Notes: generated by a model not told the origin, from the sequence alone. Shown: positions 1 to 5,429, counted from the first letter of the stretch. The stretch is 5,858 nucleotides of DNA from an uncultured archaeon (GCA_964589775.1 CAZPUN010000010.1:1-5858); one strand, 5' to 3'. A program made the numbers and translations.

Positions 1-162
1 TCACTCTGGAATTCTTCACTTGTAAAGAATTTAAGAGCGCGTATCAAGAAGATTGGAAATTTGGATAAATGTATTCAAGAACGGTCTTGTAAGAATATGA
101 CATGCCCATTATACGACAAATCCGGACTTTTATTCTGCCTAGATAGTCGTAGCGGTGTCTAA
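1..162 (+). CDS. 3' end of a Cys-rich protein, probably a radical SAM/SPASM-domain protein (truncated by the window edge)
   Basis: Frame +1 is open from base 1 to TAA at 160-162: SLWNSSLVKNLRARIKKIGNLDKCIQERSCKNMTCPLYDKSGLLFCLDSRSGV*. The 'WNS....LR' segment followed by C-x5-C-x4-C-x10-C resembles the C-terminal half of SPASM auxiliary Fe-S domains. It is absent from the ORF track because the start lies outside the window. Confidence 0.6.
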   Translation, partial: SLWNSSLVKNLRARIKKIGNLDKCIQERSCKNMTCPLYDKSGLLFCLDSRSGV

Positions 163-996: not shown

Positions 997-1803
997 ATGC
1001 TTCAATATGTACTAATAATTTCAGAATCAGGTATTAATTTAGTAAAATATGCCTCTCCAAAATATGAAGATTTCGAAATCAATGAACAGCTGTTTAGTGG
1101 ATTACTAACCGCAATAAAACAAATGGGCGACTCAATTGTTAAAAAATCCCTCGATATGATTAGTTTTGGCGATTATGATCTCTACTATCTAGAGCGAGAC
1201 AGACTAATTGTCGTTCTGATACCTCGTCCCGAGCTTGATAAGAAACGAATACCGCTGATTTTGAATGGAATAATCGATGATTTTGAGACGCAGTTTGGCA
1301 ATTTTGATCCTACAATAGATATGTTTCAAAGTTTCAGAGAACGTATAAAAATGTATGAATATCGTGAAGAATTATATAATGAGGCCATCAAGGTAGCTAA
1401 GAATTTTCCTGAAGGCGTCGTAGGTGTAGCTCGCAAAAAACTGGAAGAACTTGAAAAAGAGTTCAGCATGGAAGATGCACAAAAATTAATTCATGACTTT
1501 GGACTATTTGTAGGTCTTCGTATTAAAAACAAAAAGGACCGTGTAGAAACCCTAGACTGGGCTTTGAATGAAATTTCAGTAGCGGAAATTAAAAAAGGCA
1601 TGGTAATATTAGATATTTGTCCATTCTGTAGAGGACGACATACACATATTTCTGTTTGTAATTTTGCTACTGGTTTAATTGAAGGTATATTATCAGATCA
1701 AGACCCATCAGAAATTCTCAGTCATGAGCAATGCAAGGTTAAATATGTTGAAACATATTGTAAAGCGAAAGGCGATCCGACTTGTACTTTTATAGAAAGT
1801 TAA
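997..1803 (+). CDS. Longin-like domain + V4R (4-vinyl reductase/Bet3-like) domain fusion protein
   Basis: The N-terminal ~120 aa follow the Asgard longin pattern (YVLIISESGINL ... QLFSGLLTAIKQMGDSI ... LDMISFGDYDLYY ... LIVVLI ... LNGIIDDFETQF). The C-terminus has V4R hallmarks (FGLFVG ... CPFC ... VCNFATGLIEGIL ... VETYCKAKGDPTCTF). ATG 997 is preferred over 976 because GGTG at 985-988 is at SD distance and the longin beta-1 strand starts right after it. Confidence 0.85.
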   Translation: MLQYVLIISESGINLVKYASPKYEDFEINEQLFSGLLTAIKQMGDSIVKKSLDMISFGDYDLYYLERDRLIVVLIPRPELDKKRIPLILNGIIDDFETQFGNFDPTIDMFQSFRERIKMYEYREELYNEAIKVAKNFPEGVVGVARKKLEELEKEFSMEDAQKLIHDFGLFVGLRIKNKKDRVETLDWALNEISVAEIKKGMVILDICPFCRGRHTHISVCNFATGLIEGILSDQDPSEILSHEQCKVKYVETYCKAKGDPTCTFIES

Positions 1804-1824: not shown

Positions 1825-3705
1825 TTAATCTCTGAATCTCTCTTTTATTGATTCAATATATTTTGTCATGAATGGTGACAATTTACCCTCATATTGTTTT
1901 ATAATTTCGTCGGCTTTTGTTCGTCCGTATTCTGAACCACTGGCATAGTAGAATTTAATTGCCTCAGGCATGATAAGATACTGCATTAACTGATTATCCG
2001 GAAACTTTTGAGCTGCTATTTCAATTCCAGAAGCGATTCGTTCCATCAAGCTTCTGCGAATTCCACTGTCCTTGGGCAGCCTAAGCAAAGTATAGCCAAG
2101 CGATTCAAGTAATGCGATATATATATGTGCATAATGATATGCATTGAGTGTCCAGAATTTTTCGATATTTTCTTCAGTGAATTTGTAAACCAATTTCGGA
2201 ATGTCTTTGCTGATTTCTCCGTTCTCCCAGAGTATTCGAGCCGTAGCTGCAAGAATTGATGATGCGGATGTGAAATACATATCTAGATTTTCTCTATTTG
2301 CTTTTCCAATTGATAAGATCCATTCGAGGGAGAATACTGCTTCATCTCTATGCTTTCGAGCAATTTCTTTGGCCTTATCAGCATGGAGTGAAAGTGCAAT
2401 GTTGATTATACTGCCAAGCGCAAAATAGACAAGGACAGCCTTATGTCGATTATCTCCCGGTGCTGCATTCTTTATGGTTGGAAAAATCTCTTCAGTCCAG
2501 AATCGCTCTAGTGTTTCAATGATATGCTGCCCATCTGATTCAGAAAGGTCCGGAAGTAGCAAGCCCCAGAAATTGTAAAAGAATATCAAATGTCCATAAA
2601 TGCTTTTTGCAATTGGATTCGTGGCCTTTTCGTAAAGGTTCTTAGCGATTGCAATTTGTTTTAGCCATGAGTCTATAGATTTCGGCTTGGCAAAGAATAT
2701 CTTAAGAACCTCAATCATTTCATAGTTGAATGCATACAGGTATTCAGATACACCGTCGAATTTGTTTTTAAGAATATGCAGGAGTTCAGTATCATAAGGT
2801 GGAGTTATGATAACTTGAAATACTTTACTGCGGATAGATTCTTCATTTATTAGTTCTTTTATTTTCTGTTTGTTCTTTATGGTGATTTCTCGAACATCGT
2901 TGTATGAACCTAACTTGATGAATCCATTTATTTTCGCGATCAGAATTTCTCTAAACAAATCATCGTTTATCTCAATTGCTGTACTGTAAATTTCATCCAA
3001 ACTCGGGGCTTTCACCTTCGGATCAAATGTATTAAGAATGAGCCCGGCATTGACATACAAGCTCTTGATGAGGTCCATGTTTTCTATGTCTTTTATATTT
3101 CCTTGTGTCAGCTCTATTACTTTTTGAAAGTTTCCCGAATAGGTCAATTGCAATAATTCCTCAATACTAGGTGGAGATCTGATTACTTTCTTAACCCGTG
3201 AGATTAAACTAAACTTGCTTCGAGAAGGTTTTACATCTTTTATTTTGAGCTTTGTGTCATCTCGGATACCATCGACAGCTTGAGAAACAGAAAGCGTAAG
3301 GCTCTTTATGAAATTGATGGATGGAGGGTTTTTTACCAAAAGTTCTTCGGCTTTTCTACTAATTTCCTTTATTATTTCACTATTTTCTATGACTACTTCC
3401 GTATCAATGTTATCTAAATTACTCTTGATAATTTCACCAAGGTTCTCTACAATTCGTGGAACTGTGTCATCTTCAATATCCGAAAAGAACACAACTGTGA
3501 ATTTCTCATATTTAATCAGATAAATGTGGAAGTTCTCCATTTCAATATGCTTTAAGTCTTGTTTTATGACTTCCTGTGAAAAACTATCAACTGCCGTCAG
3601 GAAGGGGGCCACTAGGTCTATCATACCTTTTTCAAAAATTGGTACAAGTTCCTTTTGTAATAATGGTATTCCTGACTTAAGTAAAACGCTATACCCAAGA
3701 ATCAA
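1825..3705 (-). CDS. N-terminal longin-like domain + large alpha-helical (TPR/solenoid-like) region, 626 aa
   Basis: TTG start with SD AGGTGA 5 nt upstream (3711-3716, - strand). The N-terminus (YSVLLKSGIPLL ... DLVAPFLTAVDSFSQEV ... LKHIEMENFHIYL ... FTVVFFSD) parallels the longin domain of the convergent gene. The remaining ~450 aa are Ala/Leu/Ile/Tyr-rich amphipathic helices with no enzyme motif that I recognise. Confidence 0.8.
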   Translation of the reverse strand: MILGYSVLLKSGIPLLQKELVPIFEKGMIDLVAPFLTAVDSFSQEVIKQDLKHIEMENFHIYLIKYEKFTVVFFSDIEDDTVPRIVENLGEIIKSNLDNIDTEVVIENSEIIKEISRKAEELLVKNPPSINFIKSLTLSVSQAVDGIRDDTKLKIKDVKPSRSKFSLISRVKKVIRSPPSIEELLQLTYSGNFQKVIELTQGNIKDIENMDLIKSLYVNAGLILNTFDPKVKAPSLDEIYSTAIEINDDLFREILIAKINGFIKLGSYNDVREITIKNKQKIKELINEESIRSKVFQVIITPPYDTELLHILKNKFDGVSEYLYAFNYEMIEVLKIFFAKPKSIDSWLKQIAIAKNLYEKATNPIAKSIYGHLIFFYNFWGLLLPDLSESDGQHIIETLERFWTEEIFPTIKNAAPGDNRHKAVLVYFALGSIINIALSLHADKAKEIARKHRDEAVFSLEWILSIGKANRENLDMYFTSASSILAATARILWENGEISKDIPKLVYKFTEENIEKFWTLNAYHYAHIYIALLESLGYTLLRLPKDSGIRRSLMERIASGIEIAAQKFPDNQLMQYLIMPEAIKFYYASGSEYGRTKADEIIKQYEGKLSPFMTKYIESIKERFRD

Positions 3706-3830: not shown

Positions 3831-5429
3831 TTATTCAACTAATGCTTTCAAAATTTCATTCACCATTGAAAGCGTACTTTCATCTGGCATATTGCTCATT
3901 GACGATTCTGCAAGCTTCAATGCTTCATCCTGATTTACTTTAACGGGTATGACTTTGCCACCCAATTCTTGTATGATCTGCTCAAATTTTGCTCCGGTGG
4001 TCTTCTTGGGAATAACGATAATGCCTCTAGATGCTTTTCCTTGCTCAATTACTTTCTTGAGTCTCTTCGTTCCATAGAATGCAGCTACACCACCACTGCG
4101 GTCCCAATTCTTAACGTTAGGCACTTCAACTGCGACCTTAACTTCTCGATCTGCTTGCTTTACACTGATGATCGCTGCGACATCCTGCTTGCCCTTTTTG
4201 TCTTCAGGGCTTAATAGAAGACTTACATCTACTCCGACTCCACGTGCAGCCCATTCAAGAGCTTTTGTAATTGCATGTGCAACAACTGTAGGCGTAAGCT
4301 TAATTACATAATCTTTTTGTGGTTCTTTTTCTATTATCTTCTTGCCAAAGAGCTTCTCATCGAGTTTATCGATTAGTAGACGAATTGCTTCTCGGGGATT
4401 CCCTTTTGATCGTTCGATGACAAATTCAAAATCATCTTCCTTTAAGGGGAATAATTCATCTTCGGGTCCATCAATATTATTCTCTTCCCAGTATATTTCC
4501 ATCGCCTTTTTGTAAAATTCGATTATGTGCTCCTTGTTGAATTTCTCCAGTTCCACCGGTCGCTCCATTCGTGATTTAGTAGGAGCATCCATAAGTCCAT
4601 AAATACGGTCCCAAATTTCTTTTAGACATGATGCTACAATTATTACATTCTTAGTTTCATTATATATGCGTTTTAAGTTCTCAAGGAATCGGACTTCGGC
4701 TTCTTTCCCGTATGTATTGAATGGGCCTTCCATTTCATCGATGAATAAAACAACCGGACGATCTATCATCTCAGTCAATACTTTAAGAGCTGCTAGAGAA
4801 ATATCATCCTCTTCAATAAGTGTTTTGACACCGAGAATTTCCATTTCCTCATCTGATAGGGCAGCACCAAGCAACCAACGACGCGCAAGCGACCTGACTT
4901 CCTCATCACCAAAATTATATGCCAAAATAGAACGAACAACATCAGAAGCAAGTCCCGGATAATCAGCAATCACTTTATTCAGCGCATCATTAACTTCATA
5001 TCGCTTGATGAAAATTCCTTTCTTCTTGATCCCATACTTTTCTTCTAATTTTTCGCCCACTTCTTTGAATATCCAGTTTGCAGTCTCATCTACAAGACAT
5101 GAATAAATATGTAATATGTTCCTAATTGGAGATGGTGGTGAAGGTACATAAACAGCGCTAAAATCTTCGTCTTCCTCACGGTCCTTCAAAACCCAGAAAA
5201 AGTGTGTCTTTCCCATACCTGCTGAGCCTAAGATCGGCTGGAGCCTTGACGTTTTATCTGTATGTGTGTTACGTATCGCTCTCGATACTACACGGTCAGC
5301 TTCAAGATGTGGTCCCGGAACATCAATCTCATCAGGTATATCTCCTCTGGATACATATCGCTTTAAAGGCGGATTTTCTTTCAAAATTTCAAAATACATC
5401 TCATATGTTTCATCATGCTCCTCAGTCAT
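3831..5429 (-). CDS. AAA+ P-loop ATPase (BrxD/DUF2791-like) with a C-terminal restriction-endonuclease-like domain, probably inactive
   Basis: Walker A GSAGMGKT (5205-5228), Walker B VVLFIDEME (LFIDEME at 4728-4748), candidate sensor-1 IIVASC, candidate Arg finger TKSRM and GNPREAI lid. The helical insert ARRWLLG-x-x-L-x3-E-x3-LGV resembles BrxD/DUF2791-type ATPases. The C-terminal alpha/beta domain contains KVAVEVP and RGIIVIP strands. Confidence 0.85.
   Translation of the reverse strand: MTEEHDETYEMYFEILKENPPLKRYVSRGDIPDEIDVPGPHLEADRVVSRAIRNTHTDKTSRLQPILGSAGMGKTHFFWVLKDREEDEDFSAVYVPSPPSPIRNILHIYSCLVDETANWIFKEVGEKLEEKYGIKKKGIFIKRYEVNDALNKVIADYPGLASDVVRSILAYNFGDEEVRSLARRWLLGAALSDEEMEILGVKTLIEEDDISLAALKVLTEMIDRPVVLFIDEMEGPFNTYGKEAEVRFLENLKRIYNETKNVIIVASCLKEIWDRIYGLMDAPTKSRMERPVELEKFNKEHIIEFYKKAMEIYWEENNIDGPEDELFPLKEDDFEFVIERSKGNPREAIRLLIDKLDEKLFGKKIIEKEPQKDYVIKLTPTVVAHAITKALEWAARGVGVDVSLLLSPEDKKGKQDVAAIISVKQADREVKVAVEVPNVKNWDRSGGVAAFYGTKRLKKVIEQGKASRGIIVIPKKTTGAKFEQIIQELGGKVIPVKVNQDEALKLAESSMSNMPDESTLSMVNEILKALVE

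Follow-up and report, generated by a model that had tools for sequence, protein, structure and literature searches.

A longin–V4R fusion protein of a Thorarchaeota-type Asgard archaeon and its predicted docking to two small membrane proteins

Introduction

Longin and Bet3/V4R folds are building blocks of the eukaryotic Rab-activating complexes, and how the two came to work together is a question in eukaryogenesis. In the TRAPP core (PDB 2j3t, 3cue, 7b6d) longins (Bet5/TRAPPC1, Trs23/TRAPPC4, Trs20/TRAPPC2) and Bet3-fold proteins (Bet3/TRAPPC3) are separate subunits of a Rab guanine nucleotide exchange factor (GEF), and Mon1, with three longin domains, acts as a Rab7 GEF as a heterodimer with Ccz1. 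V4R domains are fused to AAA+ and helix-turn-helix (HTH) output domains in the bacterial phenol sensors PoxR, MopR and DmpR (PDB 5fru, 5kbe, 6iy8), whereas MJ1460 (2oso) stands alone. Here we describe a 5,858-nucleotide stretch of DNA from an uncultured archaeon (GCA_964589775.1, CAZPUN010000010.1:1-5858; the window throughout) in which one gene (positions 997–1803, + strand) encodes a 268-residue protein, P0001, whose V4R-fold domain has a longin domain as its partner in the same chain, and in which two genes for small membrane proteins, tmA and tmB, lie directly upstream. The best explanation of the locus, to which we give about an even chance of being right as a whole, is that the fusion serves as soluble subunit in a membrane-docked module of three proteins, which has a patchy distribution across the Asgard archaea.

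This architecture, whose novelty had been left open in an earlier note on this DNA, was already reported once: an AlphaFold2 (AF2) model for MBD3190748.1, a Heimdall protein, has a longin at the N-terminus and a TRAPPC3 domain at the C-terminus (Tran et al. 2024, Commun Biol 7:273; PMC10933270). That report devotes a single sentence and one model to it (Fig. 9g and Suppl. Fig. 10g), and describes no family, gene context or membrane partners. The Heimdall protein and P0001 have the same two-domain order and an Asgard host, and are likened by architecture, not by sequence; Heimdallarchaeum genomes do hold members of the family studied here (L021, L022). According to the same authors, Thorarchaeota TRAPPC3 (Thor-TRAPPC3) holds zinc by four cysteines and PoxR has a similar site, and the V4R fold accommodates small hydrophobic ligands in PoxR and MopR and palmitate in TRAPPC3 (PMC10933270). 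The searchable literature yielded no other mention of a longin–V4R fusion, and none of the tmA and tmB partners. The present locus adds a divergent, short-form member, from a separate family of its order, to a conserved Asgard module that the complete Heimdallarchaeum genomes also carry, and it offers a concrete three-component system in which two small proteins dedicated to the task are predicted to anchor a longin–V4R protein at the membrane.

The longin–V4R gene and its host

The whole window is one contig (C10) of a genome of 2.16 Mb and 96.75% completeness. The host is a Thorarchaeota-type Asgard archaeon, which belongs to the same order as the named Thorarchaeota metagenome-assembled genomes and forms its own family within that order. 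When the fusion gene (268 codons plus stop) is compared with its orthologue in a relative (L002), nonsynonymous divergence is low (pN 0.133) against a synonymous divergence at saturation (pS 0.78), which argues that the gene is real and under purifying selection. We place its start at ATG 997 because the GGTG-N8-ATG context of this codon is kept in 79%-identical orthologues and an alternative ATG at 976 is missing in them. The latter, which gives the 275-residue version found in the protein collection, was rejected, the corresponding codon being AGA in those orthologues.

Two folds in one polypeptide

An AF2 model of P0001 built from an 18-sequence family alignment has a predicted local distance difference test score (pLDDT) of 88.1 and a predicted template modelling score (pTM) of 0.87, the latter of which suggests that the two domains are held in a fixed mutual arrangement; a single-sequence prediction (pLDDT 47) is usable for secondary structure alone. 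The longin domain spans residues 1–122 (997–1362, + strand), as delimited by AF2 secondary structure, VIA structure matches and a profile of the N-terminal domain (A9). In the model, strands 2–9 and 14–19 are followed by helix 30–44, strands 53–57, 60–67 and 70–76, and helix 82–100, so that a five-stranded sheet lies between helices in the longin order of two strands, helix, three strands and helix. In Pfam this fold class corresponds to the clan that holds Longin, Fuz_longin_1, Sybindin, Sedlin_N and Clat_adaptor_s. VIA aligns residues 1 to about 125 of the model with VAMP7 (2vx8; Z 13.8, root-mean-square deviation (rmsd) 2.3 Å over 109 residues); other matches are Sec22b (Z 12.5), MglB (11.7) and Mon1 (10.3), the TRAPP longin subunits 7b6d_H (12.3), 3cue_A (12.1), synbindin (11.1) and sedlin (10.7), and Roadblock, which together with MglB falls at Z 10–11.7. 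Foldseek agrees with VIA on both domain assignments. The earlier note had proposed a longin-like N-terminus and a V4R C-terminus within one 268-residue open reading frame (ORF), and both folds are borne out by the model and by VIA and Foldseek, the V4R fold also by the Pfam matches of the family.

At the sequence level, the N-terminus of P0001 has no Pfam match, and N-terminal matches among the 18 family members are to Fuz_longin_1 (the commonest, in 5), Longin (4) and Robl_LC7 (1); the best of these for Fuz_longin_1 (4.1e-4) and Longin (1.2e-3) are both under the Pfam cut-offs. For profile searches a 44-sequence family alignment was split into its domains. Against the PDB, profile A9 finds the first longin domain of MON1 best (1.1e-4), with marginal matches to Bet5 (0.056) and AP-3 sigma (0.068), and the closest sequence-level relative of the N-terminal domain is therefore the first longin of the Mon1/Fuz/HPS1 type (PF19036; PDB 8c7g, 8jbe). 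Unlike Mon1, the fusion has one longin domain and shows no sign of a GTPase substrate.

A search of the whole genome with the longin profile finds a MON1-like longin domain in 23 ORFs, in keeping with the earlier note's description of Asgard archaea as rich in longins. The longin paralogues nearest to the fusion are proteins that combine a longin with a winged helix (TrmB/ArsR-like, sub-threshold; loci L008:1285-1893(-) and L018:536-2796(+)). Across the order these longin–winged-helix paralogues often come in tandem, one of about 300 and the other of about 430 residues. Atlas clusters show the same longin type joined to V4R, winged helix-turn-helix (wHTH)/TrmB or Arf/Ras GTPase domains in Asgards, and a longin as promiscuous as this is compatible with a GTPase-related role as well as with a general one in dimerisation or as an adaptor.

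The V4R-fold domain covers residues 126–268 (1372–1800, + strand), including its N-terminal helices, as supported by VIA, a profile of the C-terminal domain (A8) and Pfam V4R. Residues from about 130 to 268 of the AF2 model align best with PoxR 5fru (Z 12.9, rmsd 2.7 Å, 126 residues), ahead of DmpR (11.5), MJ1460 (11.0), Thor-TRAPPC3 (10.4) and Bet3 (10.0). Pfam V4R (PF02830) scores 24.8 bits on residues 208–266 of P0001 itself, against a cut-off of 31, but is matched in all 18 family members with a best value of 2.6e-13. When the 44-sequence profile A8 is compared with all solved structures, it detects MJ1460 (1e-5) and MopR (0.08) only. The phenol sensors and MJ1460 thus supply both the best structural and the best sequence matches of this domain, and its placement in the V4R family follows from PF02830 by way of the family, from the fold, and from cysteine and glutamate positions equivalent to those of MopR.

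These positions lie in a Cys-rich metal-site region (C208-P-x-C211, C221, E252, C255 and C263; 1618–1785, + strand), recognised from alignment conservation and the MopR alignment. All five cysteines (C208, C211, C221, C255, C263) are invariant in the 44 sequences, and E252 is kept in at least 90%. C221, E252, C255 and C263 align with C155, E178, C181 and C189 of MopR, which we take to be its structural zinc ligands. Relative to the V4R sensors the fusion family has an extra invariant C-P-x-C pair, and of the five cysteines the first three are missing in MJ1460. Five invariant cysteines are one more than the four ligands that a zinc site needs, and the V4R part of MsvR gives a weak NCBIfam match (E 0.0017), so the cysteines might instead work as a switch that responds to redox state or metal, a role proposed for MsvR's V4R domain. 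We regard such a sensor as very doubtful: the alignment with the presumed MopR ligands speaks for a structural site, the MsvR match is far under its cut-off (18 versus 220 bits), and the fusion has no DNA-binding or other output domain.

A conserved cassette with two membrane proteins

The fusion belongs to a family of 250–300-residue proteins that share one architecture. A protein search with P0001 as single query returned only itself and one 79%-identity cluster, and P0001 alone found no relatives among genome contigs, where a closer alignment (A2) recovered related loci. An exhaustive representative search gave 29 relatives, many of them 250–300 residues long and aligned over their full length. 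P0001 is a short form, without the helical insert of about 30 residues present in most members. The C-terminal profile, run against the protein collection, returned five short-contig proteins that are probably pieces of fusion genes, and this search gives no view of stand-alone V4R relatives. Surveyed across Asgard genomes, full-length fusions occur patchily, in Thorarchaeota, Hodarchaeota, both complete Heimdallarchaeum genomes and records labelled Promethearchaeota. Within the host's own order the gene is present in 9 of 40 genomes, with one copy interrupted by a contig end.

In the window the fusion gene is the third gene of a rightwards-transcribed cassette, the others being tmA (277–597, + strand, 106 aa) and tmB (599–937, + strand, 112 aa), each of which encodes a protein with three transmembrane (TM) segments. 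The assignment of tmB rests on a family alignment (A6) and on an hhalign comparison with tmA, and that of tmA on its probable ATT start, orthologue conservation and a family alignment (A7). With ATG, GTG or TTG as the only starts, the first being TTG 352, tmA reads as truncated (352–597). The start is most likely ATT 277: this codon sits 7 nt after GGAGGTG (263–269) and is also present in 79%-identity orthologues, the 25 codons before TTG 352, which encode TM1, are conserved under purifying selection in orthologues (pN 0.127, pS 0.66), and the in-frame TM1 aligns with TM1 of all relatives. The two membrane proteins are distant paralogues (hhalign probability 80%, E 1.5e-5) with different conserved motifs, H..D..D-T in tmA and D-E-W..W-K in tmB.

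The association of the three genes is widely conserved. Both tmA and tmB lie directly upstream of the fusion, on the same strand, at 24 of 25 fusion loci, and the exception begins at a contig end; clustering of the neighbours around these 25 loci yields the tmA/tmB pair as the sole conserved neighbour family. In 14 of 14 further distant genomes, which represent seven families, the V4R gene again adjoins tmA and tmB, sometimes in permuted order. Adjacency spans at least eight Asgard families, and the cassette is found across Thor-, Hod- and Heimdall-type genomes. Among 301 sampled genomes of the Asgard phylum, tmB is present in 39 (19 of 70 genera) and single-copy in 38 of these, and among the 40 genomes of the host's order it occurs in exactly the nine that carry the fusion.

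In several Thorarchaeota (L013, L024, L026, L030/L015) the fusion gene is present twice in tandem, the second copy lying upstream of the tmA–tmB–fusion cassette.

Predicted docking of the fusion to the membrane pair

A three-chain model of the fusion with tmA and tmB has an interaction prediction score from aligned errors (ipSAE) of 0.68 (0.66, 0.69 and 0.68 in separate runs), whereas the best among three controls scored 0.00. Of 80 solved complexes 58 attain this mark, as do 2 of 110 mismatched pairs; the calibration applies only roughly to the present model, which has three chains and was built from our own alignments. Between runs at least 97% of contacts agree, and the partners have pLDDT values of at least 78. 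The confident contacts of the fusion are all in its V4R half, and form a predicted docking surface of residues 138–143, 146, 191–195, 197 and 206–213 (1408–1635, + strand) that holds P138, R146, an N-E-I-S-V motif, P209 and R212; on the partner side the model uses tmB loop 41–46, the tmB C-terminal tail (106–112) and the tmA tail (102–105). Residues of the docking surface are more conserved than the V4R domain (0.66 versus 0.46; permutation p ~0.0007), as are the interface residues of tmB relative to the rest of that protein (permutation p ~0.018). The complex model supports, as a prediction, binding of the V4R domain to tmA and tmB.

Several observations weigh against a membrane-docked module of this kind. 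The interface residues of tmA show no such conservation (p 0.59). What the complex score measures is the confidence of a model, and the same alignments both fed the complex model and define the conservation, so that these two lines are not fully independent. No match above noise was found for tmA or tmB in Pfam, and a search of the ESM Atlas with tmB returned generic 3-TM bundles, which are leads, and no informative look-alike. In the host lineage tmB and the fusion gene are separated by a gap of 59 nt, versus an overlap in other lineages. In one family (L047:3080-3982(+) and L054:4338-5216(-)) the V4R gene lies on the opposite strand to tmA and tmB, and the N-terminal 140 or so residues of its product go unrecognised by the longin profile; this domain may have diverged or been replaced.

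The module might be put together as follows. The tmA and tmB proteins would form a six-helix heterodimer in the membrane, with the V4R domain sitting on its cytosolic face, held by the first cytosolic loop of tmB and by the C-terminal tails of both proteins. Loop 1 of tmB, which is rich in lysine and arginine, and both tails are assigned to the cytosol because they touch the soluble V4R domain in the model, and the acidic and aromatic motifs of tmA and tmB would then lie on the outer side of the membrane. The V4R domain would engage through its most conserved surface, comprising P138, R146, the N-E-I-S-V strand and a C-P-x-C-R-G turn beside the metal site. Beyond the predicted docking, ligand binding, the part played by the longin and the output of the module are inferences. 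By analogy with PoxR, MopR, DmpR and TRAPPC3, the zinc-stabilised V4R fold most likely has an internal pocket that takes up a small hydrophobic ligand, which might be membrane-derived or handed on by the TM pair. The longin may be free to act as a dimerisation or recruitment platform, since the confident contacts all fall in the V4R half.

An extension of this scheme, which we consider improbable, would make the module a prokaryotic membrane receptor-adaptor, in which an outer-face or lipid signal sensed by tmA/tmB and the V4R pocket controls recruitment of a small GTPase, or of its regulator, by the exposed longin; if true, this would be a membrane-anchored, ligand-gated GTPase platform predating, and mechanistically analogous to, TRAPP or Mon1–Ccz1. 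Alternatively, tmA and tmB could make up a small channel or carrier, whose cargo might for example be a metal ion or a lipid-like compound, with the V4R domain as its cytosolic substrate-binding or gating subunit and the longin serving only to dimerise. Conserved His/Asp/Glu/Trp/Lys motifs at the ends of TM2 and TM3 in both membrane proteins, the Cys-rich V4R domain with the hydrophobic ligands known for its fold (PMC10933270), and a gene stoichiometry that looks fixed, tmB being almost always single-copy, are in line with transport or handling. However, neither tmA nor tmB resembles any transporter family in Pfam or look-alike searches, six TM helices from two 3-TM proteins are few for a carrier, and the constant attachment of a longin would go unexplained; we judge this reading unlikely, if worth keeping in mind. 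To plain domain shuffling, in which a promiscuous longin has entered one combination among many and the link to tmA/tmB reflects co-regulation only, we give very little credence. The 23 longin ORFs with their many architectures, such as longin plus wHTH and longin plus GTPase, are what shuffling would produce, but adjacency across so many Asgard families, perfect co-occurrence within the order, a complex model that passes its controls and conserved residues at the predicted interface speak against it.

Relation to TRAPP

The TRAPP core likewise combines a longin fold with a fold of the Bet3/V4R superfamily, and its structures are matched by the two domains of the fusion at Z 10–12. The earlier note had taken the fusion for a Rosetta-stone link between these folds, and for a ligand-regulated GTPase regulator resembling a proto-TRAPP unit. 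What stands of this is that a longin is joined to a fold of the V4R/Bet3 superfamily; by profile, the V4R domain is not of the Bet3 type. The C-terminal profile finds no TRAPPC3/Bet3 chain at E<=10, the Thor-TRAPPC3 structures 7yh2 and 7yh3 included, and P0001 has no match to PF04051 (TRAPP/Bet3) at E<=10; in the family, PF04051 is weakly matched in 5 of 18 members (best 0.014). Neither PF04051 nor the solved TRAPPC3/5/6 chains place the fusion in the TRAPP/Bet3 family. Thor-TRAPPC3, in which zinc is bound by cysteines, belongs to the same superfamily as the C-terminal domain (Z 10.4), which we assign, from the profile and the structural ranking, to the V4R type of the ordinary prokaryotic kind and not to the Bet3 kind. 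The earlier note had named closeness to ordinary sensor V4Rs as a result that would speak against its proposal, and this is largely what the ranking and the profile give.

The host genome has its own TRAPPC3 orthologue, a stand-alone protein of 175 aa on a contig (C48) separate from that of the fusion, and it serves as a positive control for detection of TRAPPC3 by sequence: it exceeds the PF04051 cut-off (28.8 bits), finds 7yh2 at 6.9e-26 and eukaryotic TRAPPC3 at 1e-4 to 1e-2. Because this separate orthologue exists, the Bet3 lineage is represented by a different gene. The Rosetta-stone proposal is weakened by it, and also by the fusion of the same longin type to wHTH and GTPase domains; with a V4R domain of ordinary prokaryotic type and the true TRAPPC3 relative elsewhere, the locus gives no evidence of an early longin–Bet3 link.

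The nearest in-genome paralogues of the fusion's C-terminal domain are a tandem pair on C48 (33.7 and 35.1 bits), one of which is the TRAPPC3 orthologue. At this locus (C48:5500-8700; L059:999-4214) the orthologue stands in tandem with a 180-aa V4R protein and a 302-aa protein of no family, and opposite is a gene for a small GTPase (236 aa; Ras/Arf/SRPRB-like). A link between TRAPP and GTPases is better sought at the C48 locus than at the fusion.

Should the fusion nevertheless be a minimal longin plus Bet3-fold GEF or GTPase-activating protein (GAP) for a small GTPase, evolutionarily linked to the TRAPP core, it would account for the presence of both TRAPP-core folds, for the TRAPP longins among the structural matches (Z 10.7–12.3), for the weak profile match to Bet5 and the weak Pfam TRAPP matches, and for the TRAPPC3 orthologue being among the nearest paralogues. 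Ras-family GTPases, its potential substrates, occur at 23 places in the genome, and direct fusions of related longins to Arf/Ras-type GTPases occur in Asgards (Atlas clusters; PMC10933270). Against this, the C-terminal profile misses the TRAPPC3/Bet3 chains that the stand-alone orthologue detects at 7e-26 to 1e-2, the structure matches favour PoxR, DmpR and MJ1460, the best sequence match of the longin is MON1 and not a TRAPP longin, and the conserved V4R surface is predicted to serve the membrane pair. Unlike in TRAPP, where the two folds reside in separate subunits, they share one chain here, with a V4R domain outside the Bet3 sequence family; the fusion shows no link to a GTPase, and its predicted partners are membrane proteins. 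Among the recurrent neighbours of the loci examined there is no GTPase gene, those of GTPase size having turned out to be a methyltransferase, a GNAT protein and others; a class II tRNA-synthetase-like protein and a luciferase-like oxidoreductase also recur. Nothing thus ties the fusion to a GTPase, as the regulator reading of the earlier note had supposed, its only conserved neighbours being the two membrane proteins, and we think a proto-TRAPP unit decidedly unlikely.

Other genes in the window

Downstream of the cassette, a leftwards-transcribed gene (1825–3705, - strand) encodes a 626-aa protein with a longin-like N-terminus (longin profile, residues 7–122, E 3.7e-7) and a long helical region; it matches no Pfam family. 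The gene runs towards the fusion gene, the two stop codons being 21 bases apart, and neighbours the fusion only in the 79%-identity relatives L002–L005. Upstream of it, on the same strand, is a gene for a 532-aa P-loop ATPase (3831–5429, - strand) that is BrxC/BrxD- and Sll1717-like (PF10923, 27.3 bits versus a cut-off of 22.2; NCBIfam Sll1717 under cut-off), with synteny confined to close relatives. A five-gene module comprising the cassette, the longin-helical gene and the ATPase was rejected, the additional two genes being present only in the 79%-identity relatives. At the left end of the window, positions 1–162 (+ strand) encode the C-terminal end of a radical SAM/SPASM protein, which is 441 aa long in the syntenic relatives L002 and L004.

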